A DNA stretch of 63,838 bases, filler included, from Parasitella parasitica NRRL 2501 (taxonomy: Eukaryota; Fungi; Mucoromycota): assembly GCA_025201805.1 (NCBI GenBank). It is 8 parts of 8 records of this genome, joined end to end, with 100 filler letters (N's around TTAATTAATTAA, not from the genome) between each part and the next. Parts side by side here need not be neighbours in the genome. Positions count along the whole stretch, not along the records: positions 42,107 to 44,658 come from MU619326.1; 7 more parts are not named here. One strand, given 5' to 3'. Of this stretch, positions 6,301-60,230 are shown in pieces. Under the pieces are notes generated by a model, which did not search any database, had not been told where the DNA came from, and saw only the letters and a program-made list of their open reading frames with translations. The stretch's first letter is position 1. Each line of letters begins with the position of its first letter. The position numbers and the translations under genes are program-made.

Positions 6301-6546
6301 ATCTAATAAAAAAACGTACAATTCAGAATGGCCTATTCTTCACAACGGTTGGAATCTTACTTTGCTAAGCTGATTTTCTGATAGCAAAACACTTTTTCTG
6401 GCAGCACTGGAGGTGTTATTCGTAATAGTATTTTTTGAATCAGCGTGGGCAGGCGCGCTTGATGAAGATGATGTCAAAGCCGTTCTAAAGGGTCTCTCTG
6501 TCCTAAATGAAGGCGATTGAGTGGGTGATCTAGCTATTCGTGACAT
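3360..6546 (-). CDS. TUBGCP2: gamma-tubulin complex component 2 (Spc97/Alp4/GCP2), multi-exon
   Basis: Exons encode EYGTVNHALCAGMR, YTNLLSKASVPYFEIL..WIYHGEIKDSYNEFMV, KHYFFLDQSDFLTSFLDLAKDEL, LDYTVTFPLSLVISRKALTKYQLLFRH and FLDTCLKECMLT, characteristic of GCP2 GRIP domains. Confidence 0.9.
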
Positions 6547-6838
6547 ATTTCTTGGATGAATAATAACAAAATAGTTTAAGTTGTACGTGAATGTTTTTCA
6601 GAGAAAAACCCACTTCATTTGAACACCCGGTCAGGGTGCCCAAGGAGGAGGCACTCAAATACAACACATAAATCACTGATTGTAATGTAGCGAATAGAAA
6701 AATAATTGGTGAGTTTATTATGATCAAAAAATATACAATGTTGAATTAGGTTTAATATATTTACAATAAAGAAAATGATATATATTTGTGTATGTGTGTT
6801 GAACAAGTTGATAGCAAAATCACTACCTCATTAGAACT

Positions 6839-12200: not shown

Positions 12201-12393
12201 TAATATAACATTCCCTAATTTAATAGATATCAACTTAATAAACTCACTGACATTACCTCGTAAAGATGTTTCGGACTGCTTAGGATATACGGTACTTAGA
12301 GAAGTGGCTTTTTTTTGCTAAAAGCAGCTTTTTTTTTTTTTCCAAGTTGACTTTCTTGAAAAACTGCTTTACACATTTATATCTTTAATAACC

Positions 12394-13386: not shown

Positions 13387-13674
13387 TAATAAATCAACTG
13401 TGTGTAGACTCAGTAGAATCAATATCAGGCGCACAGTGTATGATTCTGATTCCAAGCATTTAGTTGGTTTGCAAAAAATAAATGTCGTTTAGCCAAAAAT
13501 GATTGTCGGTTATTAAAAATGTATTTGTTGGCTTGTGCTTTAGTAATTGTCGTTTTGAGTTAGGGGAATTGTCGGATTTGGTTAAGTCAAATTGGCGAAA
13601 TACTGTATAAGGCTAGTCGCCATATGTGTCCCTGAAGCTTTCCCTTTTCTTTTGCCTTTATATCAAATTTTGCA

Positions 13675-37300: not shown

Positions 37301-39365
37301 TTAAAAAGCTTTTTCTTGGTGCAATGCATCTTTTTTGTCCTCTTTGATAGCGACAACATTATCAAGATGAGATTCTTCGTCACTTTTATAAAGTAAACCA
37401 GCCTTCTCTTGCTCATCGAGCCACTTTTTGTAGCGACGCTCCTCTTCCTCTTCACGCCATTCCTCACCGCGGAAAGATCCCTCCACACGAGCCATGACAC
37501 AGCACCCGAGGCAATTACCAAGGACATTTATAGAAGTACGAGCCATATCCATGATGGCGTCGACACCCATGATCATCAAGACGGCCTCAAAAGGGATATC
37601 ATATTGAGCCAATGTACCTGACAAAACGACCAATGAAGCACGAGGGATAGCGGCAACACCCTTTGAAGACAGCATAAGTGTCCCCATTATAGAGAGCTGG
37701 GTACTGATGGGTAGATTTAAACCAGAGGCCTGAGCACAGAAAATGGTAGCCAAGGATAGATAAAGTGTAGTGCCATCAAGGTTGAAAGAATAGCCGCTGT
37801 TTCAAAAGATGAATATATAATATATGAGGAAAAAAGAAAGTTCGAAAATGACGGTGCAATAGTGCTGCTTCTTACCAAGGAATAACGAAACCAGTAAGAG
37901 CATTTGTACAACCAAATTCACGCATTCTCTCAAAGGCCAATGGAAGTGCAGATTCGCTTGAGGCCGAACTGAATGCGAGTAACCAAGGCTGTGCCATGGC
38001 TTTAAAGAACCCTATCACGGGAATCTTTGCAATCAACATGATGGGCAGCAGGACAATAATCAAGAAGATGACCAGAGAAGCATACACGCAACCAATCAGT
38101 TTACCAAGGTTAGCCAAAACACTAATGCCGTTTGCGCCAACGGTGGCAGCCAAAGCAGCACCAATGCCAATGGGAGCATCTACATGTATGAAATTTTGAC
38201 TATGTAAGTATAAATGCAATGAAATTAAATGTGTGTGTGTGTGTTTTTTTACAATTCATGACCAAGCCAACAAATTTGAACATGACCTATGGTATTGGAG
38301 AGTTAGCCGTTTGTATTATGCAGAGATATGCACGGTGTCATGTACCTGGGAGAGCGCCTCGTTAATTTTCAACATGACTCTTTTGCTTTCTTTATCAGCT
38401 TTCATCATGGAACAAGCAAACATAACGGCACAAAACACAATCGCCAGCACTTTGTTGTCAACAGCAGCTTTAAAGAAGCTTTCTGGAATGATCAAGAACA
38501 TTTCGTTTGCCCATGTAATCGACGTATTTTCTTTGTCAGCCAGTTCCTTTACAGAAGACGTGTCTTGACCCACAGGCAGGACAACGCCATTACCTGGCTT
38601 CACCAGATTTGCCATAATGAGGCCAATAGCAAGCGCTAGTGTTGTAACCACTTCGAAATACTAGTGAAAAATACCAGGTNNNNNNNNNNNNNNNNNNNNN
38701 NNNNNNNNNNNNNNNNNNNNNNNNNNNNNNNNNNNNNNNNNNNNNNNNNNNNNNNNNNNNNNNNNNNNNNNNNNNNNNNNNNNNNNNNNNNNNNNNNNNA
38801 AAAAAAAAAAAAAAAAAAAAACTTGATTTTTTGCACTTACAATTATGGTCTTGATGGCCAGTTTACCAACCTTTCCGATATCGTCGCCATGACCTGCAAT
38901 ACCAATTACAAGAACACTGAACACCAGAGGTACAATGATGATTTTGATCATCATGATGAAAGCATCTCCGAGAGGCTTGATCTCTTTGCCAGCCGCAGGA
39001 GCGAATTGACCAATTAACACTCCAACGATCATGGCAGTAATAATCCAGAAAGTCAAATTAGTTCTGCGTTGCAAGAAACGGATGGCTAGGACGATGGGAG
39101 AAATGGCAATCTGGAAAGCTGAGCCGATACTTTGGCCCGCATTGGCTAAACGAGGACTATAGCCCACATTATCGACGACAGGGATACGCAAATGTTCAGG
39201 CATTTTTCTTTCACGCTCATCACGCTCGCGCTGGCGGTGTATGGAAGAAGTATCATCTCGAAAGGGCGGCTGGACATTTTCAGTAAAAGAACCGGCTACA
39301 ATCTTGTCATCAGAGCAAGTGTCGTGATTGTGAGGAGCACGCTTGTGAGCAGTGATTTCGTCCAT
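37301..39365 (-). CDS. dicarboxylate/amino acid:cation symporter (SDF/DAACS, GltP/DctA-like), multi-exon
   Basis: PLGDAFIMMIKIIIVPLVFSVLVIGIA, YFEVVTTLAL, AFSSASSESALP, GYSFNLDGTTLY, MLSSKGVAAIPRASLVVL, GVDAIMDMARTSINVLGN. Confidence 0.92.
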
Positions 39366-39881
39366 GTTGTTTTTTTTTGGGAGAGTTATGAAAGAGGGAG
39401 GTGAAGGATAGTCGTTGTGCTGATTTGTTTCGTTTTTATATTCTGACCCTTTGTTCTGTGCAGTTTTTCTCAGGATTGTCGTTTAGTGTTACGTAGATCC
39501 GAAAGTACAAATCTAAAATGTTATCTTTGGTTGGCACCATTATCTCTTGTGTAAAATAGACTCGAACGAACCAAGCGGGTATACAATATATAAGGCGTCT
39601 TCGTACATCTGCATTGAAATTAATTTGGGATATATTGAAATATGCCATTTACTCGTTTTTTTTTTCTTTTGAATGCATACCAAAATATGCTGGCATGTTT
39701 TGGCTCTCACAAAATCATCTTCAAGGGCAGAAAACAGCAAACCCGCATCACCTGTTATAGACGAACCCGTAACAAAATTCCGTTGTTGAACAATGCTATA
39801 CAACTTAACGAACCAGGCTCAGTTTTTCGTTCTCACATGTACATACTTCTTGATCTGTCATAGTCCCATTTTTTAAGTTGT

Positions 39882-41399
39882 GTGATACAAAGATGCTATG
39901 CTATATTTTCAGATAAATACGATGGGATAATGGCTCTTTCCGACAAACAAACATTGACTACAGGAAGGAATCTCATTGGTGGAAACACTGGAGATTCTCG
40001 CCATAACCCAAACAAACAAAAAGACCCAATGCGCTCATACGCACAGGTAATCAAGTCTAATCAAGCAAGGGATTGCTTTGATTTAGGACGCAGGACAGCA
40101 GCTGAAATAGGAGAACTGTCTGAGGGTGGAAAACTGTACATCCACGCCAAGGATAAAAACTCCATAGTAATTGACGGTGCTCAGTTTACTGAGGCAAATG
40201 TCAATTTTAAGGAACTCGGCGTTCTACTTCGGGAGCAATACCCGGAAGCACTTGGACTTCGCATTCGTAATGCAACCAAAGGCACTCACTACTTCGAAAT
40301 CAATTTTCGTACAGCAGCAGCCAGGGAAGAGGCCCTGAAGAAAGATTTTGCCTACAAAGACAAGAAGGTGACTGTCAGTCGAACCTTCCCCAAGGATGCT
40401 ACTATCATTCGAGTTAGTATCAGTGATCTACCCTTTGAGGACGAGGCCATCCTCAAGGAACATATGAGCGATATCTTTAAATACCATGGTGAAATTCTGG
40501 AAATGGGTCTACTGTACACTGTACATGGTCACTGGTTCACCGGTCGAGGCTTTGTTACTTTGAACAGACTGCCGGGAAAGGACTATAAGGATTTGACACC
40601 TCAAATGGAATCTTGGGACGATAATGAAAATCTAACGCTCACGTACACTAACATGAAGCCTAGTTGTAGTCGCTGTCATGTCACCGATCATGTCTTCGGT
40701 AACTGCCCCACAATGATACGTAAGATGAAGAAATGTTACATTTGTGGTCACTCTGATCATTTGCAAGCTGGCTGCCCAGAGGCTTGGTGGAACCTCAACA
40801 AGATGGCTAAAAAGATTGCCAAACGTAATGCAGCCCATAAGTCGCCCAATCAGCCAAGTACTCCTGATGACACCACGATTATCAAGGAATCTGCCAATTC
40901 TGCTGCTCCCTCTCAGATAGCCGCTAAAGACGACTCGCCAACTATCGTCCAGCAGATTGAGGGGTCTACCTCAGAGCATGAAGGACCGTCGAAGGTTGCT
41001 GACGGTACGACTTCTACCCAGGCCGATCTGGTGGTAGATCACCATGATGCCCTGGGAGCCCCCGACCAAATTGACCCGGCTCTCCCGGAGAGTAGCAATG
41101 ATGCCCACCATCAGGAGGAAAGAGAAGATATGTCTGATGCCGACATGGGCTCTGATGTTGATGATAGCGACTTGGACATGTTTGAAGCTGCCAAGGAAGC
41201 TGAAGAGACCAATGTCTCTATTGAACAAGTTCTGGCCAAACAACGTCTGCTGCTCAAGAAGGCCAAAAACAAGAAGCAGAAAACGATCAAACAGATGAAA
41301 GGTAACAAGGCGTTGGGCCATTCCAGTTTTGGGGCTCGCGTAAGTGGTGGGGTTGCTAAGGGGCAGAAGCAATCCACCAACACTTCTTTAACGTTATAA
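39882..41399 (+). CDS. LINE (L1/Tx1-like) ORF1 gag-like protein with two CCHC knuckles
   Basis: CSRCHVTDHVFGNC and CYICGHSDHLQAGC after an RRM-like region. The true start is probably a downstream ATG. Confidence 0.85.
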   Translation: MIQRCYAIFSDKYDGIMALSDKQTLTTGRNLIGGNTGDSRHNPNKQKDPMRSYAQVIKSNQARDCFDLGRRTAAEIGELSEGGKLYIHAKDKNSIVIDGAQFTEANVNFKELGVLLREQYPEALGLRIRNATKGTHYFEINFRTAAAREEALKKDFAYKDKKVTVSRTFPKDATIIRVSISDLPFEDEAILKEHMSDIFKYHGEILEMGLLYTVHGHWFTGRGFVTLNRLPGKDYKDLTPQMESWDDNENLTLTYTNMKPSCSRCHVTDHVFGNCPTMIRKMKKCYICGHSDHLQAGCPEAWWNLNKMAKKIAKRNAAHKSPNQPSTPDDTTIIKESANSAAPSQIAAKDDSPTIVQQIEGSTSEHEGPSKVADGTTSTQADLVVDHHDALGAPDQIDPALPESSNDAHHQEEREDMSDADMGSDVDDSDLDMFEAAKEAEETNVSIEQVLAKQRLLLKKAKNKKQKTIKQMKGNKALGHSSFGARVSGGVAKGQKQSTNTSLTL

Positions 41400-41405
41400 T
41401 TATTA

Positions 41406-42006
41406 TGAGTAATCATAATAATTATAGCCAAACCTAGAATATCAAATTTGGATCACTTAATTGTAGATATCTACTCAAAGTCAACAATCCCCAATTATCT
41501 GATTCTTTTATTCGGTATTTGAGGTTGCAAAAATTTGACATTTTTGCCTGCCAAGAAACCCATATACCCTCACTACACTTTGAAGATCGGACAGCCATGC
41601 TCAACATGAAATTCCAATCTTATCAAAGCTTATGGACATCCCAATGTGGATTATTGAATTTTAACAAGAATATCAACATGGAAAAAATACACTCCTCCAA
41701 TGATGGTAGATTTATATTGGCGAAATTATCGGTACCTGCAGAGCCAAACTTTTTGCCTATATACGTACTCAACGTATATGCACCTGCGGATACTATACAA
41801 AACAAAACCGTTTTTTACAACAATTTGATAGCATATCTCAAATCGCTAGATAATTATGGTGATATACTGGAACGTATGATTCTTGCTGGTGATTTCAATT
41901 TTCAGTATGATTTACGATTGCCTGGCAACACACCTAGCAAGCAACCAACAGCATTTGTGAACTTTACAGATTCATTTCTGCATGACTGCAACAACAATTA
42001 CAGCGA
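41406..42006 (+). pseudogene. LINE ORF2 5' part (APE endonuclease), early stop, cut by gap
   Basis: MSNHNNYSQT*NIKFGSLNCRYL...DIFACQETH...GRFI...LNVYAPA...ILAGDFN. Confidence 0.85.
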
Positions 42007-42106
42007 NNNNNNNNNNNNNNNNNNNNNNNNNNNNNNNNNNNNNNNNNNNNTTAATTAATTAANNNNNNNNNNNNNNNNNNNNNNNNNNNNNNNNNNNNNN
42101 NNNNNN

Positions 42107-42400
42107 CTCTGTTTGTCCCTCCTCTGCTACAATCTTTTTTCTATGCACGATGCGAGGGCATCCATGTTGTCATTGATCTTCCTTAATAGCCATATGCATC
42201 CCCTCCACCACCCTGACCATCCTAGATGTCATCGTTGGTCTGAGATATCTTTTGCTTCCTTTTTTTCTTTTCGGACATAGTTCCTGATCCCAACCTTTTT
42301 GTTTCCCAATGCTTGCAATAATGATCAAAAGATCGAATGCAATATAGCATTTGTTTTATTAATTCTTTACTTCATATTAATAAACATCCTAAATTTTCGC
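42107..42400 (+). mobile_element. 3' end of an upstream retroelement copy in the tRNA-Ala-type tandem array
   Basis: Pyrimidine-rich segment ending TGATCA..GAT..AATGCA...AATAAA, then the CTGAGCTACATCCCC junction. Same layout as 44280-44352. Confidence 0.5.
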
Positions 42401-42415
42401 CTGAGCTACATCCCC

Positions 42416-44338
42416 ATCTTTCTTTCGTCTAAACAATTTTTTGTCTAAATTTTAAAACTTTGAAAATTTTTTCATCAAGTTGAATAGCCCATTCTCTACT
42501 TTTTTCTTGATTCAAGCTTACCATCATTGCCTCCATCGAGAAAATTTCTTCTTCTACTACGGCTTCTCCTGGTCTGAAACGACCTGTATCCTCACTCTCT
42601 CCTCCGCTTTTTGCTTTCGATCTATCTCAACAGATCAAATCTAAACGTTCTTCTCTCTCTCCTAGAGAATCCCTATTTGCGTCCATGGTCAATACTTTCG
42701 ACTCACCCCCGGATTTGTTTGACTTTGGACCTACCCAACCGCCTTCTGCCTCGTCTGAGGGCGATTTGAACATTGCTTCCTTTGTTATCGAGGTTCGCAA
42801 TCGTTTGAGTCGTCTAGAGGCTGCTCACGCTGAGATTTCTCGGCTCCGAGCAGCTCTAGCAGAATCAGAGTCTGATAGAAAGGCTCTTCAAGCCCAACTG
42901 TCTCGTCTGTCTGTTTCTTCTGTTTCTCGTTCTGCTGCTGCTCCTCCAGCCCCACTAAAAGCTGCCTCTTTTGCTTCGGTTACTGCTGCTGCTGCTGCTA
43001 CTGCTACTCCTACTTCTTCTGCTTCCGCTTCCGCTGTTTCTGCTGTCTCTGTTTCTTCTGTTTCTGTCCCCTCTGCTGCCTCTGGTAACAAAAGAAAGAA
43101 AAAACCTGCTGCTCCTCCTCCCTCCATCAAAAAGGCTGCTGCCACAGTCACTCGTTTGTTTGGAAAGCAATCTGATATCCCCTCAGGATATCAGTTTGTA
43201 TATTATGCTATCTCTCGTCGCCGGCCTCTGCAAGAGATGCGCCGAATTCTCCAGGGTATCAAACTGAACAATTCCCGCATCTTGGATATTCAGTATCCCA
43301 CGCCACATGTCATCTCCTACCTCGTCCACAATGACTATGCTCTCACTTTCACCAGTGGGATGCATTTGAATGGTCGTGGCTGCTCCCCCCTCTCCGACTT
43401 CGATCCATGCGATCCAAAAAATCTGCTGGATCCAAAGTATGCCTCTCTGTCTCCTTCTCTTCGTGCTGAAAAAGCAGTAGAGGTTGAAAATCTTCGTTGT
43501 CTTCGTGCTCTGTCGTTTGTTCGTCGTTCGGTTCGTCTCTCTGTTGCTCGCTCGTTTCTGTATTACGAACGTATTACACAGAAACGGTACGATGCTATTC
43601 TTGCTGAGGAATTGTCTGCTCGTGCTGCTGCCGCCCCTGCCAAAACTCTGTCTCCCTCCGATGCCCAGGATCGCCTGGCAAAGAAACAGCGTCTCAGTTA
43701 TCTCCATAACTTGCTTTTCTTTGACCCTGCCACTGCCAAAACATTGGCATATACTGCGTCCCCGGTTCTCTCTGCTTCTTCTCCTGCTGCAGACACGGTA
43801 ATGCCAGAAATCTCTGGTGTTTGATCGTGTTTGGTAGGTTAAGTATTGTCTCTTTGTCTCCCTCCTTGTTTCTGCCCGCCCGTCTGCTCTCTTTGTTCTT
43901 TTCTTTTTCTTATCCTACCTGGTCTTTGCTTTCTCGTCTCCTTCTTTCTTTACACTACAGGTGTATAGAATCTGCCTCTCCTTTTTTCTCGTCTTTTTGT
44001 GTTTTCCCTGGTTGCGTCTGTTGGTTTTGTTTGTGCTGCTGTATGCCGGTCGAGGTCTCCTCTATTGCACCGTGCTCATACACCACAGCTTCTCTCTCAG
44101 CCTTCCTTCTTCCCTGCCGCCCGACCCCTCTCTCCTGAAATTACAAGTTTTTCCAGTTTCTTGACTTACGATTGGCCTCGCATTTCCTTTTCAGGTAACA
44201 TTCCGATGTTACCTGACTGGATCTGTCATCTTAAGTTTTAAACTTTTTTATTGTAATAGATTCTCTTAGTATAGCAAATTTATGATCATACCGATTAATG
44301 CAGAAAATACTAATGTAAATAAAAACCAAACCTTTCAA
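42416..44338 (+). mobile_element. ORF1-only non-autonomous non-LTR retroelement (~1.9 kb) bounded by CTGAGCTACATCCC direct repeats
   Basis: Single ORF 42685-43824 (frame open from 42511), homologous to the ORF1 C-terminal domain of the LINE at 47099-49270. No RT. 3' UTR has a hairpin and AATAAAAA. Direct repeats at 42401-42414 and 44339-44352. Confidence 0.8.
42685..43824 (+). CDS. LINE ORF1-like protein (coiled coil plus conserved C-terminal RRM-like domain)
   Basis: GYQFVYY...NSRILDIQYPTPHVISYLVHNDY...DFDPCDPKNLLDPKYASL...LRALSFVRRSVRLSVARS, matching 49744-51309 and 47099-49270. Confidence 0.8.
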   Translation: MVNTFDSPPDLFDFGPTQPPSASSEGDLNIASFVIEVRNRLSRLEAAHAEISRLRAALAESESDRKALQAQLSRLSVSSVSRSAAAPPAPLKAASFASVTAAAAATATPTSSASASAVSAVSVSSVSVPSAASGNKRKKKPAAPPPSIKKAAATVTRLFGKQSDIPSGYQFVYYAISRRRPLQEMRRILQGIKLNNSRILDIQYPTPHVISYLVHNDYALTFTSGMHLNGRGCSPLSDFDPCDPKNLLDPKYASLSPSLRAEKAVEVENLRCLRALSFVRRSVRLSVARSFLYYERITQKRYDAILAEELSARAAAAPAKTLSPSDAQDRLAKKQRLSYLHNLLFFDPATAKTLAYTASPVLSASSPAADTVMPEISGV

Positions 44339-44352
44339 CTGAGCTACATCCC

Positions 44353-44658
44353 CACCTTTCTTTCCCCTAACCAATTTTTTACCTAATTTGGAACCTCCAC
44401 TTTTTGTAAGAAATTGTATAACACTTCATCCATCCATCTTGATAAAAGCTTCATCATTGCATCCTTCGAGAAAATTAACTCATCTACCTCGTTGCCTTCA
44501 GATTCTCATTTTTCTGTTGCGTTTGATCTCGTACAACAAATAAAGTCCAAACGATCCTCAACAACATTTGGAGATCCCAAGCCCGCTCCTCCTGCCCAAA
44601 TGAATCTATCAACACCAGATATGATTGATTTCGGTGTCACTGCCCTCCCGTCTGCCTC
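44353..44658 (+). mobile_element. 5' end of a further, diverged ORF1-only-type element (cut by gap)
   Basis: Starts ACCTTTCTTTCC like 42416 and encodes IIASFEKI...AFDLVQQIKSKRS...PDMIDFG, paralogous to IIASIEKI...AFDLSQQIKSKRS...PDLFDFG. Confidence 0.75.
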
Positions 44659-44758
44659 NNNNNNNNNNNNNNNNNNNNNNNNNNNNNNNNNNNNNNNNNN
44701 NNTTAATTAATTAANNNNNNNNNNNNNNNNNNNNNNNNNNNNNNNNNNNNNNNNNNNN

Positions 44759-47102
44759 TGGCGGATTTGAGAGGATTCCATCTATAGCCCAGAGAAATTG
44801 AATGTTGCTCAGCTATATTAAGAAGTGCCTGTGTATTACGTGCATTTCCTAATATAACAACATCATCTGCAAAGAAAAGTGAGTTCAAAAGGAGTGGAGA
44901 GGGGGTATTACCGCGAGAAATTGGCTGTGGTGGTGGCATACGAATTGTTGAATATATAGCGCTATTGGCTGATGTCGGCTCAGCACGAAGAGCTTGAGCG
45001 AGCGAATTGATATAGATCAAATACAAGTGTGGAGATAGGGTAGAGCCCTGCAGAACACCTGTAATCGGATTGAAAGGAGTGGTGGAGACGTGGCCATTGA
45101 GGAGGACCTCAATTTGCACGTTATTGAACAGTAGTTGAAGTGTGGTCAGGAATGGAATATCAATGTTGACATTCTGCAATGCCTTCCATATAATATTCCT
45201 ATCGGTTGTGTCGTATGCAGATTTGATGTCTAAAAATAATAGAGTAGGAAATTCTTTGTGTTTTTGTTTATACCTGATTATTAGTTCCTGTAGGCATAGA
45301 GCCTGATCCAATGTACTTCGTTGGTGTCGAAAGCCGCCCTGTACTGGGTCTAGTGGTACGGAGCGAGGTAAGAGAACGTTGTAAAGACAGATTTCGTAAA
45401 TCTTGCGAAATGTGCAAATCAGGCTGATAGGGCGATGGTTTTTGGGATCATGCACGGGTCCTTTTTTGTAGATGGGGATAACTTGTGCATGGTTGTAGTC
45501 GGTGGGGATGATGGCAAACTTCCAACAGAGAGAGAAGAAATGGTGTAATACAGGTGAGATAAGATCAGTTATTGGTTTGAGCATCTCTGACTTGATATGA
45601 TCAAATCCAGGAGCTTTGTTGGTGGGTAGGCATTTGATAGCGTACGCCACGTCGTCAGAATCAAACAAGATGGGCAGATCAAAGCCCTCGTCAGACAATG
45701 GGAACTGAGTCGGCACCTGTTCGACCGCTGGATTGATATACTTACCATCGTAAGTGTCTTGCCAAGAGGTAGTGATTGTGTCGACAGCCGTTTGGGGACC
45801 ATCTACATGTTGGAATACGCTGCTAGCTAAACGGCTTTTGCTGCGTTTAATGTGCTTGATCTTGTTGGCTGCCTTACTGAATTCAGAGGTGGATAACTTG
45901 TCACAGAATTGTTTGAAATAAAAGCGCTTAGTTTTATCGATGATGGAGCGAACAATATCTGCTGCTTCTTGAAACTGTTTCCAAAATAAAATTTTGTTGA
46001 ATCGGTTAGCATATTTCCATTTTTTGTACAAACGCTCTCGTCGATGGCAAGCATCTGCTAGTTCTTGTGTATAAAACCATTTCCAGGTTTTTGGGCGCGG
46101 TGAGTGTCGCTGTATTGTTGCATCTAAAGAGCTATGGATTATGTCAATCAGGTTAGTATTTAAACGATCAATATGTTCTTGTTTCTGTTGATGACCCGGC
46201 ATATAGGACAAAATGGTTGGATCCACAAGCTGTAAAAATTCATCCAGACGTGAACGAATATGGTTACGGTATTGACGAATGTGGTCAAGATGGCGATTAG
46301 GGTGCTCTTGCGATGGCTTGAACTTGTTTAGGTTCCATAAGAAACGTGGATGGACATTTGTGATAGGCGGTGGATCGAAATCATGAGGTAATTCAAAATG
46401 AACCATCTTATGATCTGATCCTAAATAGACGTCAGTTGTGATAGACATAGAGATACCCTCCATATCAAACGGATGTGTGCTCATAAAAAAGTCGATAATG
46501 CTGGTTTTGTCAATAGGATTTGCTTCAGTGCCCTTGATGTACGTAGGCACACCAAAAGCATGGTCAACATTGTGCAAAGTAAGGCAATGAGTGTGAAGAA
46601 AATCTAAGAACGGTTGATTTCGACCATTTTGACGCTTATCGCCAATATAGTCGCCAAGGCGCGTATTGAAATCGCCACAAAGTAAGACATGTTCAAATTC
46701 ATAGTTGGCGGCATAATGTTCTAATGAATCACTTAGTAGATCAAAACAGGCTTGATCGTCTAGGGAAGGAGGTAAGTATGTACATAGGATGAGATAATTT
46801 TGGCATTGACAGGGGAGGATGAACTTGGACTCTTGATAGATGGGTAGAGGAAGGACTGTATATTGGAAAGAAGGGTTGATGAGTAGCGAGATACCAAATT
46901 GTCCTCGGCGAGCCCTGTCAACGCCAATGCCAAAATTGTGGATTTGGGTCCATGTCGTAGGTAAAGAGCGTTGTGGTAAAAGCCATGTTTCAGTAATAAA
47001 AAAAAGATTAGTTTGCATAGGTAAATTGTCAAAAATAAAATCCATAGTTTCGCTTGTGATGCCCTGGGCATTCCACAAGGTAATGCCTAAAGATTTACTC
47101 AT
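44759..47102 (-). CDS. LINE ORF2: APE endonuclease plus reverse transcriptase (3' end in gap)
   Basis: WNAQG, ITETWL, LCGDFNTR, IIDFF and SDHKMV (APE). KAPGFD, NHRPISL, QGGFR, FLDIKSAYD, GVLQGSTLSP and FFADDVV (RT). Uninterrupted up to the gap. Confidence 0.95.
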
Positions 47103-49270
47103 AGTGGCATATTGGTGTCACTTGCCGCGGGTGGTGACTGGGGAGCCTCGTGGGGAATAGAAGCAGGATTTGATGGTGTTGCTGTGGTGTTAATATTGGA
47201 TGGAAATACCTGTGCAATTTGTTGTTGTTTTTTGTTCTGAAGGAAAGCATTGAGTTCGGGTGTAGTCAAAATTTCTTTGCGGTGAAAATATTTTGCCACC
47301 GAGTGGCATGTGGGATAACGCATAAAGGAAAGTGAGCGCATCAAGTTATTTTTGAATATGGTTTGTAATTTGATTACCTTTTCGCTATCTGGCAAGGCAG
47401 AATAGCGTTGATCTCGAAGATGGATAGGATCAAAATAATCATAAGAGATTGGATTAACTTTGGCGGCTGTAAATCTGGAGAGAAGCTCTGCTTCATAATT
47501 GGTGTGGATCAGTAGCCCGATCACATTCCAATCAGGACAGTGAGCATCTAGAATACGGACGTTGTCGATGCCTAGAAGTGTCAATTTGGATCGAATGATG
47601 CTTGGCTTCATTCGTTTGTTACTAGGGAAATAAATGTATTTGTATTCAGCAGTAGGTGGTTTTTGTGTTGCGTTGAATATCGTGAAGGCAAGCTCCAAGT
47701 TGGCAGCAGTTGGCTGATGGGATCTAAATTGACCGGGTGCATATTTGATTTTAATGAATCCAGGCTTTCGGGCCTGTTCAGCATAACTGGGAATAGCTGG
47801 GACTAATGGGGGGAAGGAGGGGTTAGTAGTATCAGCGTCCATATTATCTAGGGTGGTTTCCGTATTTTGTGGCGTATTGGTATTAGCTTGTTCCCTGGCT
47901 TGTGTGCTATTGTGGTCAAGATGCATGTCAGTAGTATTCATATTATTGTTGGTATTCATAATTGTATTTTTTTGTCTTTTTTGTTCTTTCATCATGTTTT
48001 TTAACTGTTCAATTTCTTTTTTTTGCATTTCATTTTCTTTTTTCTGTTCGTTTAGTTCTTTTTTAAGCTGTTCATTTTGTTCAATCAAAGTATTAATGTA
48101 GTCAAATTTTTGTTGGTTGTCATTAGCTTGTTCCGTAAGCTTTTTAACACTGTCAAGTAAAAAATTAATCACTTGAAAGTTGTTTGATGCTGTTGGATTA
48201 GTATTGTCGTTTTCAAGCCAAATTGGCAACATGTCATCCTGACTGTCGTGGATAGAGGAGATTGAGGCAGTTGGTTGAGCATCTGTAATCATAATATTTT
48301 CCTCTACAGTGGGAGGGGAGAGGCTGGATTCAGAATGTTGGTGGTTGAGGTGGGACATCATATCCACAATGTTGGAGATATTAAAAATTCGCTTGCAATG
48401 GTTACATTGGAAGCGAGGCCTAGGGGGTGAAGATTTGGTAAATCCAAATTTGACCAAGGTGCCAATGGTTGTGCACTCAATGCAGCTGATTTGCTGTTTC
48501 AGTTTCTGGTACTGCTCAGAAGAAGCAATATCCTCGGCAGAGATCAGGGATGCAGGAGTTCCAGGAAGAGGCGTGAAGTGGGCTGGTGAGGCTGTTGTAA
48601 GATCAGTGTTTTTTGGTTTTTTTGAAATGATTCCAAGGGCCTGATTCATATGAGCCATAGATTGTTCGCGATGACAAACAATACATTGGAACTCCAATGG
48701 TGGTGAATTTCTGTTCATGTCGTCGTCCTCGTCCGAATCAGAGTCGTGTCTCAGGGATGTAATGCTAATGCAACCAATGTTAGTGCAGTGTTCACATGAC
48801 AATTCGCTTTTTGATTTCCCAAATTTGGATACTAGTTCATTCTGTAAGCCAGAGAGCGCACCCGAAAGGCGACTCAGAATGGATGGGGTAACTGGTGTTT
48901 CCGTAAGCTTTCGTTTGTTACTGGTAGAAATTGACTGTAACATGGAGTTGGATGTGTTAATTGAGATAGGTAACTTTCGCATACGCTGTTTGGGAGGCAT
49001 CTGATGGTGGAGTATTTGTGCTGCTTCAGGAGGCGGAGATGATGAATCCGACGCATGAACTATTGCTTTTTTTATTGTTTGTTTTTCTTTGTTTTCTGTA
49101 TTTTTTTCTGATTCTTTTTTATTATTGTTTTCTTTTTTTTCAATGTTTTTTTCTTCTTTTTTGTCATTTGTTTTTTCATTTTTTTGTATTGTTGCAATTT
49201 GCTGGATTTCATCAGACGAGCTCGCACCCGGCCGATTAGTACCTGGTGGAATAATAGGAACACCACGCAT
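47099..49270 (-). CDS. LINE ORF1 (two C4 Zn-ribbon-like motifs, coiled coil, RRM-like C-terminal domain)
   Basis: CEHC...CIVC and CIEC...CNHC, then YKYIYF...NVRILDAHCPDWNVIGLLIHTNY...YDYFDPIHLRD. The stop overlaps the ORF2 start as ATGA. Confidence 0.88.
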   Translation of the reverse strand: MRGVPIIPPGTNRPGASSSDEIQQIATIQKNEKTNDKKEEKNIEKKENNNKKESEKNTENKEKQTIKKAIVHASDSSSPPPEAAQILHHQMPPKQRMRKLPISINTSNSMLQSISTSNKRKLTETPVTPSILSRLSGALSGLQNELVSKFGKSKSELSCEHCTNIGCISITSLRHDSDSDEDDDMNRNSPPLEFQCIVCHREQSMAHMNQALGIISKKPKNTDLTTASPAHFTPLPGTPASLISAEDIASSEQYQKLKQQISCIECTTIGTLVKFGFTKSSPPRPRFQCNHCKRIFNISNIVDMMSHLNHQHSESSLSPPTVEENIMITDAQPTASISSIHDSQDDMLPIWLENDNTNPTASNNFQVINFLLDSVKKLTEQANDNQQKFDYINTLIEQNEQLKKELNEQKKENEMQKKEIEQLKNMMKEQKRQKNTIMNTNNNMNTTDMHLDHNSTQAREQANTNTPQNTETTLDNMDADTTNPSFPPLVPAIPSYAEQARKPGFIKIKYAPGQFRSHQPTAANLELAFTIFNATQKPPTAEYKYIYFPSNKRMKPSIIRSKLTLLGIDNVRILDAHCPDWNVIGLLIHTNYEAELLSRFTAAKVNPISYDYFDPIHLRDQRYSALPDSEKVIKLQTIFKNNLMRSLSFMRYPTCHSVAKYFHRKEILTTPELNAFLQNKKQQQIAQVFPSNINTTATPSNPASIPHEAPQSPPAASDTNMPL

Positions 49271-49406
49271 GTGAATGTTCTTGATAGGAGACGATGTTAG
49301 GAGGTTTGATGATCCCGTAGTAAGGAGTTGGAGATATCACGTGTGGTGGATCAGAAAAGTATAAATATGTTGATGTTTTCAACGCGCGAGAAAACTACCT
49401 ATACTT

Positions 49407-49421
49407 CTCTTCGGTAGTATA
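49407..49421 (+). repeat. 15-bp duplication of the tRNA-Asp 5' end (putative target-site duplication)
   Basis: CTCTTCGGTAGTATA is identical to 51362-51376 (tRNA positions -1 to +14). Confidence 0.9.
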
Positions 49422-51361
49422 AACTAAACTTTTTATTATAGAATGACTTCAAATAGACTGCGTCCCATTCGGGCAAGGTGTCTCATCGGGGCAGGTTGGC
49501 GATTGTTATATATGGATCGAAAAACTTGACATGTCAAGAAAAAAAAGCGGGGAAATCGAATTTACAAAATGTGGGGAAAAGGAGACTACACTAAGATGGG
49601 AGTAAATTATTATAAGCTGCATAAAAAAATGAAAAATTATAAAAAATAAAATATTATGGGCGTCAAATATAAACCAAAAGTAGAAGTGAAAAGAGTTGTC
49701 AGATGGAAAGGGAGCGGCGAGAGAGAGAGAAGAAAAAAATATATTATACCTCCATGGCATTCAAGGCAGCAGCAGGAGCATTAGCATTGGTACCAGTGGA
49801 TGGTTCAGAGGGCGGAGGAGAAGAAGCAAGAGCGAGGGCGGAGACAGGATCGAGATATTTCAAGTTGAAATAATATTCAACTCGAATTCTCTTTTTCTCT
49901 TTTCTCTCGGCAGCAGAGACAGTGATATTAGTGGCAGGTTTCTGTGCAGCACGAGCTGCCAGTGTATCAGCCAAAATGGCATCAAACTGAGCTTGAGTAA
50001 TGAAGTCTTGCAACAACATAGATCGCGCAACAGAAACACGGACCGAGAGACGAACAAAGGTGATGGCACGGAGCACACGTATATTTTGCAAATCCATCAA
50101 TTTTTGCAAACGAGTGGCAGGGTTAGCGGCAGAGAGGGCAGGGTCATGAAGATTGGCATCTTCAAGCGGATCAAAGTCCAGCAAAGGATCAGTATTCAAT
50201 TTTTTGTGCATTGTGGAGGTAAACTCCAAGACGAAATCAGCATGCACCAAGAAACAGACAACACGGTGAGTGGGGAAATGAATGTCAATAACTCGCGAGT
50301 TACTGACACCAATTAGAGGGAGGATCTTTTCACGGTACCAAGATAATAGAGGATGTTTCTGGGCTTTATAGTAAATAAAGCGATAGCCATCACTCGAGGA
50401 AGGCTCAGATTTTGGACTGAATTTTCTAGAAAAAGCAGCCAGAACGGCAGGAGAAGGAGGAGCAGGTTTTTTTGCCTTTCGTTTTCTTTTGACAACAGTG
50501 AAATTGTTATTGGATTGAGTGTTGGCAACAGCAGACGCCGCAACAGCAGCAAAAGTAGGAGTTGTAGTAGTGGTAGCAGCAGAGGAAGGACCTTTGGAGG
50601 TAGAGGTGGCAGGATTTGGAGCAGCAGCTTTATTAGCAGCGGCTTTAGAGGCTGGCCTCGAGGTAGAAGAAAGTACAGGTAAAGATACTTGCGCTTTCAG
50701 CAAATTTTGAGCATCTGTCAATGCAGTTTTTACTACATTGAGTTCAGCTCGTAATTTGGCATTTTCAATGGCTAAGCTTTCAACACTTGCCAGACGAGAT
50801 TCTTGATACGCAAGTTTTTGTGTTAGATCACGAATTTGTGATTGGAAGCGGAGTGCCCACGAAGGGGTTTCGTTATCCAGATCGACAGAAAAAGGAGTAG
50901 CAGGAGAGAAATTGGGGATTGTGGTGGTACCTGAATTCGTGAATTCAGTATCTATTTTATTAGATACCTTGGTCATTTGGGGTAAAGAAGCACGACTGGG
51001 GTTGGTTTTAGTACGAGAGTGTTTTTTGAGAACTTTTTGTGAATCAACACCAAAAAGTGGAGGAGACAAAGAGGAAAAAGGTCGTTTAGATTTGTCTGAA
51101 GAAACTTCAGCAAATGTTTTGTTGGGTTGAGAAGAAGATGCTTGAGAAGTCGATGATTTTGAAGAGTGATTAAAACTTTTTGAGTCCTTAGTAGAGGGAG
51201 ATGCCGTTGTTACTGTTGGTACAGTACGAGATCTAAGTTGCCGTGGCAAAGGAATTTTAGAGTGGTTTGCTTTCTTGGTAGACAGTTTCAATGATTGTTG
51301 CTTTTTCAAAAATATTGCGGGTGTTGAACCTATATGTTATGATGAGAAAGCGAAAGAAAGG
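49422..51361 (-). mobile_element. ORF1-only non-autonomous non-LTR retroelement inserted at the tRNA-Asp 5' end
   Basis: 1940 bp between the two 15-bp repeats, one ORF (49744-51309), 5' end CCTTTCTTTCG, 3' end AATAAAAAGTTTAGTT, no RT. Confidence 0.85.
49744..51309 (-). CDS. LINE ORF1-like protein
   Basis: KRPFSSLSPPLF, coiled coil, GYRFIYY...NSRVIDIHFPTHRVVCFLVHADF...DFDPLEDANLHDP...LRAITFVRLSVRVSVARS. Confidence 0.8.
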   Translation of the reverse strand: MKKQQSLKLSTKKANHSKIPLPRQLRSRTVPTVTTASPSTKDSKSFNHSSKSSTSQASSSQPNKTFAEVSSDKSKRPFSSLSPPLFGVDSQKVLKKHSRTKTNPSRASLPQMTKVSNKIDTEFTNSGTTTIPNFSPATPFSVDLDNETPSWALRFQSQIRDLTQKLAYQESRLASVESLAIENAKLRAELNVVKTALTDAQNLLKAQVSLPVLSSTSRPASKAAANKAAAPNPATSTSKGPSSAATTTTTPTFAAVAASAVANTQSNNNFTVVKRKRKAKKPAPPSPAVLAAFSRKFSPKSEPSSSDGYRFIYYKAQKHPLLSWYREKILPLIGVSNSRVIDIHFPTHRVVCFLVHADFVLEFTSTMHKKLNTDPLLDFDPLEDANLHDPALSAANPATRLQKLMDLQNIRVLRAITFVRLSVRVSVARSMLLQDFITQAQFDAILADTLAARAAQKPATNITVSAAERKEKKRIRVEYYFNLKYLDPVSALALASSPPPSEPSTGTNANAPAAALNAMEV

Positions 51362-51362
51362 C

Positions 51363-51434
51363 TCTTCGGTAGTATAGTGGTGAGTATCCCCGCCTGTCAC
51401 GCGGGAGACCGGGGTTCAATTCCCCGCCGGAGAG
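51363..51434 (+). tRNA. tRNA-Asp (GTC)
   Basis: 72-nt cloverleaf TCTTCGG...CCGGAGA-G, anticodon arm CCCGC-CTGTCAC-GCGGG, B box GGTTCAATTCC, followed by a T-run Pol III terminator. Confidence 0.97.
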
Positions 51435-51550
51435 TTTTTTTTTCATTTTTTTAGGAGGTGTACATAGACGTCGATTGAAGATTGGAAATGTTAAAAAACG
51501 TTATGAAATTACAATTATAATCAAGTGTGGTGTGCTTCATTATAAAATTA

Positions 51551-52031
51551 CAGTAGGTGGATTAATAGTCCGGATGTTTTGCAAAATTCGCTAAAACAAG
51601 ATGTAGATCCTGAACAAATTGTCCAATCATTACGAAATGAACGTCATTCAAGAGAAAAAATAGTCTTTAATATACTATAAAGATTTTATTTTGGTTGGTC
51701 AACGGAGATCGAAATAATTCGGAACTAAAATTCATGTGTGCATCCGGACCATTTTTCAGGGTACTCAAACGAATATGGAAGCTCATCGAATTTCATGCAG
51801 TTTTATATCAAACAGTCACGACTGATTAGTTATCAGTCATAAAATATAAAAACTGTTTTAGTTTATTTTTGGTCTTTTCTTTCTTTCTTTTATATATCAA
51901 ACTCGCATCTCATTGATAATATATAAAATGGTACGCTCTTTGCCTATGGACACTCAAAATAGTATCAAGAATTTATTGCAATCTGGTTATTCTTATTCAC
52001 AAATTATGAAACGCGTTCCTGGAGTCAAAAA
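51551..52031 (+). mobile_element. 5' end of a Tc1-like transposon (cut by gap)
   Basis: TA|CAGTAGGTGG terminus and an internal inverted GTCCGGATG/CATCCGGAC pair. The ORF from 51928, MVRSLPMDTQNSIKNLLQSGYSYSQIMKRVPGVK, resembles a Tc1 N-terminal HTH. Confidence 0.65.
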
Positions 52032-52131
52032 NNNNNNNNNNNNNNNNNNNNNNNNNNNNNNNNNNNNNNNNNNNNTTAATTAATTAANNNNNNNNNNNNN
52101 NNNNNNNNNNNNNNNNNNNNNNNNNNNNNNN

Positions 52132-55092
52132 ATTTTATGATGGGAATCTAGTCTTGTTCACTTCATGCCCCCCTGCTAAACGCAAAAAAATTTGCGTTGA
52201 CCCAGTATGCGGCAAATTTAGATGACTAGGGAACGAAATGGAATCGGTAGACTTTTATAAATATATTCTTTATTTTACGCATAAATTGGAATGCGCCGTA
52301 ATATGGGTTACTTGCCGTTACATTGGATTTAATTAAGTTAGAGTATTTGATTTTCGTTGGCATGTTCGGTGCGCTCGATAAGAAAATCAAAGGGTAACAT
52401 GAGTAGTAATTTATCGGCAAGCTTAAGGTATTTTGGTTTGTGGTGAGCTTTGGCTCTTATATTTGTTTTATTTATATGTTTGTCAATAGAGATGGTGATT
52501 TTTTTTTTTTTTTTTTCAAAATTTGTTTGCACGTTTGTGGAGACGACGAGTTTGCTTTGATAGATTTTTTCGTTTGATAGAGGGGTTCATATGTTTTGTA
52601 TCTCCGGGTGAAGTGTCATTGTTTTCATTTTGTAATGCTTCTCGTCGTTGTAGTTCTTTCACTTTGTCCCAATAATTGGCAATGGGAATAGGCGAGGAAA
52701 ACAGGTCAGGGGTAAGCCAATCATTCTCTCTTTCTCCGTAACCGCACCATTTTGTCAGATATTCGGTGGTACCATCTGGTAGTACACGATGATCACGTAT
52801 TGCTTCGACTTCATATACTTTTTCTTCAAGAGCTGTTTCATCTAAAGATACTACTTTTAGCTCTGAAGGTGTATATTCACGGTGCAACAATTCATTTGTA
52901 TCGTCTTTAAGTACGTAGGTGCCGGCCTGAGTACGTCTGACGACAATGTATGGTCCTGAATAGAGAGGTGCTAATTTATTCTTTCGACCTTCAGCAAAAC
53001 GTATCATTACAGGCGTTCCTGTTGGAATCTGTTCTATTATGTAATGTTTTTTGTTGAATTTTTCGCGATGTAATTTGGCTAATTCATCTGTTCTTTGTTG
53101 GATAGCGGGAAAGACGATGTCATTCATAATTTCTGTTCTTTTTTGAAGTTCTTCAAGTGTCAACGTCTTTCTGCTATTCCTGTTAATTTGTTTAGGTTTT
53201 AAATTTACTTGTCTAGCAAACATCAGGCTAAAAGGGGTACTTGCAGTACGATCTCGTACTTTCATATTAATGGCTAATTGAATTATAGGCAGACGATTAT
53301 CCCAGTTTCGTGTGTCGTTTCCACACATCTTTCTTAAGGTCGAGGAAACTATTTTCACAGCATTTTCGCTATGACCATTTCCTTGTGCATAGTAAGGGGT
53401 GCTGTGGATCATGCCAATGTTTAGTGATTTGTATATGTATTCAGAGAGATTTGATTTGAACTCGCGTCCATTATCAGATAAGGTAACATTTACTGCTAAT
53501 CCATAATCTCCATAAATTGATACTAATAGATTGGCAATAGTATCACTTTGCTTGTTTGGGGCTGCTCGGGCAATGATGTACTTCGTACAGATGTCTACAA
53601 CAACAAGAATATAACAGTTTCCCCGCTCAGTTACAGGTAAGGGTCCGATCATATCCATGCTGATGAAATCAAATGGTTCATACGATACAACACTTTTCGC
53701 CGGGTTAAACCCTTTTTTTGCAACATTATGCAATTGGCACTCCTTACAGGACATCAAAATTTCCTTGACATCATTATAAATGTTCTTCCAATGAAGGCCA
53801 TGATAGGTGTGGATATGCTTTACGACAGCTGCCATACCAAAATGACCAATTTTATGGGCATCCTGAATTATTTGTTTTCGATCACTTTTGGGCGGGCAAA
53901 CATAGTCAGTTGGGGCCTCCTTGAATTCTTTATCAATGATTTTGACAGCAAGTACGTTTAGATTTGGATCTTTCGAATAAATTTTCCTTTGTTTTATAAT
54001 TTGGTTTCCTTTTACTCTTCGTTGTAAAATCAATTTTTCTAATTTCTTGATTTGTTGAGCATATTCATCCGCAAGCTCCTCATCTTCAGTTATAGAAGGG
54101 TACAATCTTGATAGACGATCAGCAAGAATGTTTTCCATTCCTTTTATATGTGCTACCGAGAAATTATATTCTCCCAAAATTTCCAGATAACCTTGGAGAG
54201 TGCTATTTAATGTGGAGGATGTGAACAAATATGTAAGAGCGATATGATCACACAATACAGTTATATTGTTATGACCCCACAAAAGTGGTTTGTATTTTTG
54301 AAAACCATATACTATGGCTGCAGTTTCTCTTCGATTTGTGGACCAATTTCTTTCGGCACTGTTCAAAGATCTGCTTACGAATGCGACATGTTTGATGCGA
54401 CCATAATCATCTTTTTGAAATAGACATGCTGATATTCCTAAAACGCTAGCATCTGTTTGCATATAATATGGCTGTGATGGATCAGGTGCGTAAAGGATTT
54501 GGCTAGACATGAGTATTTGCTTAATTCGTTGTAGTCTATCCGTATGTAATTGATTCCATTTTCCCTTGATGTTTTTCTCATTTCTGAGTGCGTCAATAGG
54601 GGCGGAAATTTTGGATAGCATCGGACAGTAGCTTCTAAGATGGCTGATAACTCCCATAAGGCTACGTACTTGTTTTGTTGTTTTTGGTATTTCCCAGGAA
54701 TCGATATTTGACAATCTTTTTGTATCAATTTTTGTTATATCTTTACTGATAATGAAACCTAACAAATGTACACTTGTTTTGAAAAAAGAACATTTATCAA
54801 TGTTGATTCTTAAGTTTACACTAGTTAAGCGGTTGATTACTAATTGAAGCATCAACGAACTTGAAGTTGCGTCTATTCCCCAAACAACAATATCGTCCAA
54901 ATAATGACAAATTCCAGCTTGGAAATTATCATCAATGCGACTAATGTCTTTATTTTGTTGAAGATACAACTTCTTTAATTCGTTTTTTAGTTCTTGTTCG
55001 ATACCATCAAACAAAACGCTCATTGTATAAACAAATTGGCTAACAAGGAATTTTAAACCAAAGGGGGCTCTACTCCATTGGTAGCTCTGATT
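52132..55092 (-). mobile_element. Ty3/gypsy chromovirus, pol 3' part (RT-RNase H-integrase-chromodomain), PPT and start of the 3' LTR
   Basis: ORF 52516-55023 and upstream: APFGL, HYLDD, QTDAS, ADRLSR, HHCC (H..GHFG...CKEC), SMDM, SDNGREF, GPY motif, YEVEAIRDHR..YLTKWCGY chromodomain. PPT AGCAGGGGGG followed by TG at 52165. Confidence 0.95.
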
Positions 55093-56633: not shown

Positions 56634-57094
56634 GGCGGATCTTTATCCCAGTACAAAGTGGTGATATCCTATGACATTTGGCTCCTGAGGTCGGTGTTAA
56701 ATCCTGATGAATGTTCTTCCATCAAGCTACAAGGAACAATATTCTATCCCTCATACGTATCTATGCTCTTGTCTTACTAGTAACCACCAAGTTCTGAGGA
56801 ATTGGTTCAAGTCGTACCCAATTATTCCTCATTCTAGATCATGGTCCTATGTTTGCGGCACTGTTAAATAAGTATAAATACCTTCAAAATATACACTAGT
56901 GAAAATCCTCATTCAAGCTTGGTATAGCGAAATAAATATATTCAGTTCTAATTGTATTTTCCTGTCTATTTTGCTATTCGAAACAGCTATGTGTGTTTAG
57001 GATGTAAAGGCTAAGCGAGGTGTTGTGCCTGAGATCAAACTTGGGTATTCCCACAATTATGCAAAAGTATTATACCGTAGTTACACTCATTAGC

Positions 57095-57820
57095 TTTTTT
57101 TTTTTGTTTAAAAGTGTATCTTTATTAAAATTTCATAACAAAATTATAGATTAGGTACAGGCAAGGTCAAGGTGCCAGCTTGAACACTTGTCAAAGACGA
57201 AACGGAAGAAAATAGTAAGCCATGTTTAAACATGCCGAAGCAATCCAGGGCTCCGTGTCTATGACACATTGCCAATGATATTTCCAAAGTGTACTGTACG
57301 CAGTACCAAGACCCACCAGAACCTCTTCATCGAGCATTGACCCGATAGTCATGACAGTTGGGAGGAGATCCTGCAGATACAGCAAGAATACACCATCTCG
57401 CTAATACCGGGCTTTGAAGAAGCAGCCAACAACAAAATGAAACAAGTATTCTGGAGCAAGACCACACAGAGCACAAAGAGGAGACGGAACTTTAGCTGAA
57501 ACTACACAATAGCACCAAGACCAGTGAGCCACACGATCATGCAACAATCGCCACCGAGGTGTTAATGCTTTTGTTGGCAGATTAAGGGACCAAAAAAGAC
57601 GCTAAGAAGGAGGAGGTAGTCGCAAATGGATAGGCAGACAAAGTGGAGGACCCATACGAGAGGTAATGATATCCTTTGCAGGATGCCAATACCTTCGCAA
57701 GGTGTTCAAAGACAAGCGAGCCACAGGGACAGAAGAACGAGAGGAATTGGAAATTGTCCAGTGTGAGCAATCTGGCATCCAAGAAGAAGCACCATCAGAA
57801 CGGGGCATAGTCTGATAGTC
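57095..57820 (-). mobile_element. 5'-truncated L1/Tx1-like LINE 3' end (zf-RVT region plus poly(A))
   Basis: RWRLLHDRVAH...SPLCALCGLAPEYLFHFVVGCFFKARY, LWKYHWQCVID, then AATAAA and an A-tail at ~57095-57105. Frameshifted. Confidence 0.8.
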
Positions 57821-60165: not shown

Positions 60166-60166
60166 A

Positions 60167-60230
<64 letters not shown>

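Follow-up and report, generated by a model that had tools for sequence, protein, structure and literature searches.

The segment at 42107–44658 (Parasitella parasitica NRRL 2501, record MU619326.1) was analysed within a window of 63,838 nucleotides, the whole stretch of DNA under study. It holds a head-to-tail stack of two related ORF1-only elements and what is likely the tail of a third, separated by two short spacers that resemble the 5' end of a tRNA, and both ends of the stack fall in gaps. To the right of the second gap lies an oppositely oriented mirror stack, made up of a tRNA-Asp, an ORF1-only element, a repeat of the tRNA nucleotides from −1 to +14 and a two-ORF LINE. The features are as follows.

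39864–42006, plus strand: 5' half of an L1-like element, a neighbour outside the stack, with a zinc-knuckle ORF1 and the start of an APE ORF2; runs into the gap
42007–42106, no strand: assembly gap (N runs with linker, a placeholder length); on our model the remainder of the L1-like element, a tRNA on the minus strand and the beginning of element 1 would lie here
42107–42401, plus strand: element 1, 3' end only, non-coding, 295 nt; AATAAA 17 nt upstream of the junction; poly(A) absent
42402–42415, minus strand: spacer 1, tRNA nucleotides +1 to +14, Ala-type, with the 5' half of the A box; putative target-site duplication
42416–44339, plus strand: element 2, a complete ORF1-only unit of 1.92 kb; 5' motif ATCTTTCTTTC; 515-nt 3' UTR; AATAAA 16 nt upstream of the junction; poly(A) absent
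42511–43824, plus strand: ORF1 of element 2, 437 aa stop to stop; first ATG at 42685
44340–44353, minus strand: spacer 2, the identical tRNA nucleotides +1 to +14; putative target-site duplication
44354–44658, plus strand: element 3, 5' 305 nt, with motif ACCTTTCTTTC and the beginning of an ORF1 frame; ended by the next gap
44759–49406, minus strand: two-ORF LINE; ORF1 at 47099–49336; ORF2 with APE endonuclease and RT, ended by the gap; 5' end abuts the outer tRNA-Asp copy
49407–49421, plus strand: outer copy of tRNA-Asp positions −1 to +14, a 15-nt target-site duplication; inner copy at 51362–51376
49422–51361, minus strand: ORF1-only element at tRNA-Asp, 1.94 kb; ORF at 49744–51336; 5' motif GCCTTTCTTTC; AATAAA 10 nt before the junction
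51363–51434, plus strand: tRNA-Asp(GTC), intact (ARAGORN; Rfam RF00005, 60.2 bits), head to head with the element

The 14-mer CTGAGCTACATCCC occurs exactly twice in the whole window, at 42401–42414 and 44339–44352, and exact identity at the two junctions extends to 16 nt (CTGAGCTACATCCCCA, 42401–42416 and 44339–44354), bearing out the perfect repeat described in the first-pass annotation. Repeats of 16 nt are expected by chance 0.003 times in a 2552-nt stretch, an incomplete control because homologous element 5' ends (70% over 140 nt) follow both junctions. The tails preceding the two junctions gave no blastn match to each other at E<0.01, in agreement with the earlier description of the adjoining element sequences as diverged. 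A metagenome scan gave four loci, L001 to L004. Judged from sequence, the first C of CTGAGCTACATCCC probably still belongs to the element, as its final base, and not to the spacer; the duplicated core is placed at +14 to +1 because the L001 element also ends in C although its tRNA-Lys has A at +15. Reverse-read, 42402–42415 gives GGGGATGTAGCTCA, of which 13 of 14 letters match the start of the Rfam tRNA consensus. Among 80 listed loci (of at least 122) at which the 15-mer occurs in viral contigs, 56 begin a tRNA there, 30 of them Ala and 26 of other types. The 15-mer reads as a tRNA 5' end, most likely that of a tRNA-Ala, and the "Ala" identity proposed earlier stands as the commonest one among these viral-contig tRNAs, but not as the only one.

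The spacer joined to the motif YCTTTCTTTC has three sites in the window on both strands, every one at an element junction. CTTTCTTTC directly follows the spacer in four of five element heads, L001 being the exception. Its absence from the outer tRNA-Asp copy indicates that the motif is borne by the element, while the spacer varies with the tRNA. The geometry from which the first-pass annotation had argued is indeed present at tRNA-Asp(GTC), where a 15-nt repeat of positions −1 to +14 surrounds a minus-strand element.

Over 88 nt, the tail of element 1 shares 77% identity with the tail found ahead of that 15-mer at L002, and element 1 can be assigned to a subfamily distinct from element 2. It gave no tblastn match to stored proteins, which rules out RT coding sequence, and it is unlikely to be the end of the L1-like element at 39864–42006, since L1-type ends elsewhere in the window (57.1, 57.8 and 60.2 kb) carry A tails and element 1 does not. 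Neither a tRNA nor a spacer was found at the 5' end of that L1-like element. Element 2 shares 74% nucleotide identity with the L001 element over 1806 columns. Element 3, which lacks 39 nt that related contigs have, is 70% identical to element 2 and 68% to L001. No second ORF was found in element 2, the L001 element or the tRNA-Asp element. Depth of the sequencing-run contigs is uneven across the stretch, depth here not being a copy number, and one mixed loose contig end lies before 44353.

That the stack is a local tandem duplication, a recombination product or a repeat misassembly beside gaps might be suggested by its two ends, which both lie at gaps, and by the run contigs, none of which crosses a junction with 31 letters on either side among the matches listed for four runs. 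The adjacent units, however, are about 70% alike or unrelated, and the arrangement at junction 1 recurs in other DNA, at L002. Moreover, contigs from three of the four runs match 42390–42971 without difference and those of one run reproduce 44252–44366 (these runs may be of the source strain). We consider an origin by duplication or misassembly very improbable.

The 3' end of every element for which it is visible (five of five) falls at tRNA nucleotide 14, within the A box, with AATAAA 10–17 nt upstream of the junction, and a poly(A) tail or terminal A is seen at none of the five. Target-site duplications vary in length, from 15 nt at tRNA-Asp to 23 nt at L001, with 14–16 nt around element 2. 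Self-comparison of 39000–52100 by blastn revealed neither LTRs nor terminal inverted repeats, and no shared 3' RNA fold scored better than shuffles, except in element 1 (z −2.1). The units are likely non-autonomous ORF1-only non-LTR retrotransposons that would be mobilised in trans through RNA; they are placed with LINEs because their ORF1 is related to the ORF1s of EN-RT LINEs, they lack an RT of their own, their duplications are variable and they have no LTRs or terminal inverted repeats. Primer-binding sites of LTR elements match tRNA 3' ends. Such a site was rejected here, since the spacers match tRNA 5' ends and no LTRs are present; a SINE head was likewise rejected, being on the wrong strand and only 14 nt long.

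The model of the element 2 ORF1 protein comprises a coiled coil (85–135), a disordered linker, a ferredoxin/RRM-like domain (228–295) and a helical C-terminal part (pLDDT 62.8). A coiled coil followed by a small RRM-like domain and a helical tail is the layout of LINE ORF1 proteins. The best fold matches of the model reached Z 6.3–6.6, under the confident level, and Foldseek returned no match at E≤0.001. The relationship is visible in sequence comparison: the ORF1s of element 2, the tRNA-Asp element and the two-ORF LINE all align, element 2 being 44% identical in amino acids to the tRNA-Asp element in the conserved domain, 28.7% identical to the ORF1 of the LINE (47099–49336, E 3e-12) and 38% identical to those of L003 and L004. 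In the last three cases the ORF1 homolog lies directly upstream of an EN-RT ORF. Element 2 ORF1 has 47 homologs, the named ones all from Mucorales (Mucor, Parasitella, Benjaminiella, Pilaira), of which the closest reach 81–82% identity in the conserved domain. Its Atlas clusters are of Mucoromycota and carry no Pfam family, and databases list the protein family under unrelated host-gene names. No ORF1 relative was present among 133 candidates in a viral collection or 32 in a prokaryote collection; the viral contigs yielded neither the junction motif nor, in an RT scan, a relative, and the RT scan of prokaryote assemblies gave 80 distant LINE contaminants, none informative.

A quick tree built from 49 conserved-domain rows (five partial sequences among the 47 database matches were omitted; supports below 95) places element 2 and the L001 element in one clade (SH-aLRT 85) and L002 in another (SH-aLRT 91), with the tRNA-Asp element on a long branch outside both. 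L001, a contig unrelated to the window, has an intact minus-strand tRNA-Lys(CTT) (109–183) next to an ORF1-only element. The element is flanked by a 23-nt duplication of tRNA-Lys positions +14 to −9 (169–191 and 2149–2171) with unique flank beyond. The 5' motif CTTTCTTTC is missing from the L001 element, whose 5' junction carries 39 unrelated bases, so either the element starts irregularly or two tRNA-Lys loci have been joined in the contig. At L002, an element-1-type tail is followed by the same Ala-type 15-mer and then by an ORF1-only element that shares 66% identity with element 2. L003 and L004 hold distant relatives with two ORFs and showed no tRNA junction, L004 having a tRNA-Gly 1.7 kb away; tRNA targeting is therefore not general across the wider family.

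A tRNA together with a complete duplication is visible at two loci only, tRNA-Asp and L001. Because the spacer matches the adjacent intact tRNA at both, it is read as a target-site duplication and not as a fixed element end, and the earlier reading of the spacers as duplications of a tRNA 5' end between stacked elements is matched by the same arrangement at these two intact tRNAs. If the 15-mer were instead a fixed, tRNA-derived terminus that the element had captured as a head or tail, the stack would have formed by head-to-tail self-insertion without a tRNA at its end. The 15-mer does stand ahead of three diverged elements (element 2, element 3 and L002), in two sources an element-1-type tail comes before it, and neither ARAGORN nor Rfam found a tRNA-Ala, or any tRNA other than tRNA-Asp, in the window. 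A fixed terminus would not follow the neighbouring tRNA, however, and L001 is the decisive result, where the spacer tracks the tRNA rather than the element. The first-pass annotation had allowed that the 14-mer might be a fixed part of the element; the L001 element, of the same clade as element 2, has a tRNA-Lys spacer on both sides that matches its adjacent tRNA, and the tRNA-Asp element has an Asp spacer. Self-insertion through a fixed terminus is, in our judgement, improbable.

Movement as DNA was also weighed, either by a Dada-like transposon or by a recombinase whose attachment site would be the tRNA 5' end. Dada DNA transposons of fish and Perkinsus target the A box (TAGCTC, nucleotides 8–13) of several isoacceptors and form tandems with a single duplication between units, as described in the available text of PMC3706591 and PMC8869645. 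The elements studied here share that A-box target, the use of several isoacceptors and the tandem arrangement, and they have no poly(A) tail. By the same accounts, Dada elements encode a DDE transposase and make a 6–7-bp duplication that splits the tRNA, whereas the duplications of the Mucorales elements span 14–23 nt and reach +1 and beyond. The element ORFs gave no Pfam match to a DDE transposase and contain no transposase or recombinase family, no terminal repeats appeared in the self-comparison, and ORF1 is homologous to LINE ORF1s. In addition, the duplication is 15 nt in one case and 23 nt in another with only the 3' junction fixed, as target-primed insertion predicts. The chance that these elements moved as DNA is very small.

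The preferred reading, that the spacers are target-site duplications left by LINE-type insertion, implies a tRNA at the head of the stack. The first-pass annotation placed it in or beyond the gap at 42007–42106. No tRNA lies to the left of 42007 in the window, where the gap is bordered by the L1-like element, interrupted after its 5' half, so the second of these positions was not borne out. A minus-strand tRNA starting GGGGATGTAGCTCA, probably Ala, is expected with reasonable confidence inside the gap itself, although the L1 insertion could have displaced or eliminated it. No tRNA-joined contig end was seen among 24 loose ends listed (84 more exist).

The first-pass annotation left a choice between relaxed A-box-based specificity and subfamilies specific to one isoacceptor. 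A single ORF1 clade, that of element 2 and L001, is found at both Ala-type and Lys targets, and Ala-type spacers adjoin elements of two different clades; for these reasons relaxed A-box targeting is favoured, within a small sample of four loci compared by sequence. The Ala-type and Lys targets have TAGCTCA in common at nucleotides 8–14, and the Asp target reads TAGTATA. Some lineage preference may still exist, given that an element-1-type tail occurs twice at an Ala-type spacer and a separate lineage occurs at Asp.

We propose that target-primed insertion of non-autonomous LINE-type retrotransposons, repeated at one tRNA gene of a Mucor-like fungus, very probably gave rise to the stack. An APE endonuclease and RT would be supplied in trans by a two-ORF relative. 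First, the strand that reads like the tRNA would be nicked immediately after A14, within the A box (TAG-C/T-T/A-C/T-A across the three targets), and the element RNA would be copied from the nicked 3' end at +14. Cutting of the other strand at about −1, and once at −9, would leave the element antisense and head to head with the tRNA, with nucleotides 1–14 duplicated; the tRNA would remain whole, and the element 5' end would become its new upstream flank. The same tRNA could then be targeted again, newcomers probably pushing older elements outward and leaving one spacer per junction, and the order of insertion is not fixed if the spacers can themselves be re-targeted. Such a scheme accounts for the arrangement observed: an antisense element, a fixed 3' junction, a variable 5' junction, an intact tRNA and head-to-tail stacks. 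What is recognised is most likely the A-box site rather than one isoacceptor.

With AATAAA so close to the junction, the element RNA probably extends a few bases into the old duplication. R1Bm and SART1Bm are likewise site-specific APE LINEs, directed at other targets (28S rDNA and telomere repeats, respectively); according to the available text of PMC7265360, target-like RNA downstream of these elements may base-pair with the nicked DNA, so that copying begins precisely. By analogy with R1Bm, base-pairing of the RNA trailer with the nicked DNA may set the start of copying exactly at the end of the element, a tentative suggestion to which we give somewhat less than even weight; such pairing would explain why the ends are exact without poly(A) and why tRNAs that share the A box would be preferred. 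More tentatively, by analogy with TRE5-A, whose ORF1 protein binds TFIIIB, ORF1 and Pol III factors may provide additional tethering, and the retention of ORF1 would fit a role in cis, possibly tethering.

The candidates for the autonomous partner are the two-ORF LINE that abuts the outer Asp copy and a group of EN-RTs of about 1120 aa. The former (44759–49406) is a candidate tRNA-targeted autonomous element by its adjacency only. For the latter, the longest contigs of element-2-type ORF1s and of the ~1120-aa EN-RTs have the same size three times (7314, 6729 and 11920), which suggests, from matching sizes only, that the two lie together. Related two-ORF elements, as candidate partners only, carry an N-terminal APE domain, and no RNase H family match was obtained in any of four full-length related RTs of these candidates. 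In its most specific form, an as yet undescribed Mucorales LINE lineage would nick at one A-box nucleotide and prime with read-through of the previous target; it would thereby insert precisely, restore the tRNA, do without a poly(A) tail and step between isoacceptors with a common A-box sequence, accompanied by long-lived ORF1-only passengers with a likely non-AUG start; taken as a whole, this is doubtful.

Transposons targeted to tRNA genes are already known. TRE5-A of Dictyostelium discoideum, of the L1 clade, inserts about 47 bp upstream of tRNA genes and has an oligo(A) end; as the available text describes, TRE5-A.1 and TRE5-A.2 resemble the present elements in being APE-type, in facing the tRNA 5' end with their own 5' end, in forming tandems, in using many isoacceptors and in having an ORF1-only derivative mobilised in trans (PMC5391098). 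In contrast to TRE5-A, the 3' junction here lies at +14, inside the coding sequence, with the 5' junction at −1 (Asp) or −9 (Lys), the tRNA is rebuilt by duplication, and an oligo(A) tail is absent from all five ends. NLTR-A of Dictyostelium purpureum inserts 2–6 bp upstream of tRNA genes (PMC5006619, PMC5911963, available text); it has an RNase H domain after the RT and an amoeba host, and the accessible portion of PMC5006619 reports no duplication of tRNA nucleotides 1–14. NeSL-1_TV, LIN15_SM and LIN25_SM are similarly non-LTR elements inside tRNA genes; they use a restriction-like endonuclease and one isoacceptor each, as far as the available text of PMC4640811 describes them.

In the same fungal group, Mucor GremLINE1 is L1-like, centromeric and A-tailed with AT-rich target sites, and 79 further copies are classed as "other LINE" (PMC9963178, available text). 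The CCHC ORF1, A-rich tail and AT-rich target site of GremLINE1 are absent here. The "other LINE" copies counted in that text may include the two-ORF partner; domain-based curation probably overlooks ORF1-only units. The available text of PMC9963178 reports no tRNA association, and six junction motifs were not found in the accessible content of two of its supplements. The literature covered, including the available portions of PMC9963178, PMC7928374 and PMC7011435, describes neither LINEs targeted to tRNA genes in Mucorales nor a nick at +14 after which the tRNA is restored, a scope that leaves aside Repbase and the TE dataset of PMC9963178.

If this interpretation is correct, a site-specific LINE lineage would be added for the early-diverging fungi, with a safe-harbour strategy, absent from the literature covered, in which the tRNA promoter is cut internally and the gene is rebuilt through the target duplication. 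A retrotransposon and the Dada DNA transposons would have converged on the same A-box bases, and the use of one nick position at several tRNAs would provide a natural test of sequence against Pol III-factor targeting. The lineage could also be a source of a compact endonuclease/RT able to insert precisely at tRNA genes, which are multicopy. Finally, it would explain why Mucor assemblies have gaps at tRNA genes, and also a protein family listed under unrelated host-gene names.

The ORF1 frame of the ORF1-only elements, LINE-type units of about 1.9 kb lying between duplications of tRNA 5' ends, extends upstream of its first ATG. In all five such elements the frame is open and conserved over the 58–120 codons that precede this ATG. 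Two of the five lie in the metagenome loci L001, at tRNA-Lys(CTT), and L002, at an Ala-type 15-mer, and three in the window at:

42511-42684 (+), ORF1 frame upstream of the first ATG, element 2
44387-44600 (+), the same in element 3
50977-51336 (−), the same in the Asp element

Comparison of this portion between element 2 and L001 revealed 11, 6, and 26 differences at the first, second, and third codon positions, a pattern like that of coding DNA. Together with the open and conserved frame, this suggests that ORF1 is translated from a non-AUG start. At 44516/44517, element 3 is missing 39 nt (13 codons, the frame being kept) that are present in related contigs of sequencing runs X1 and X3. The proteins P0009, P0010, P0016, and P0038, which belong to this transposon ORF1 family, are entered in databases under names like "white collar 2", "thymidylate synthase", or "heat shock transcription factor"; these host-gene names look like mis-annotations.

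At the L001 5' junction, 39 bases (192-230 of the locus), unrelated to other element heads and weakly similar to the tRNA-Lys upstream flank at the opposite end, separate the 5' duplication from the element body. They could stem from a template switch, from sequence captured at a paralogous tRNA-Lys gene, or from a chimeric contig. In L004, a distant two-ORF relative, a 5'-truncated Mucorales-type LINE, 77% identical to that of L003, is joined to yeast-like genes and a tRNA-Gly (6200-12268), reflecting either a chimeric contig or transfer between fungi.

Other repeats were also observed in the window:

13475-18598, inverted pair of Tc1/mariner-like transposase copies, ~99% identical, enclosing an ORF with ACCGAT/ACCGCT repeats on its flanks
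52516-55092, fragment of a chromodomain-type Gypsy pol, on the right-hand side of tRNA-Asp
57090-60230, several L1-type fragments that have A tails and AATAAA, at 57.1, 57.8, and 60.2 kb

At the gap 44659-44758 the plus-strand Ala-type stack meets the minus-strand Asp stack tail to tail, and this convergence on one gap suggests that two neighbouring divergent tRNA genes were both targeted.
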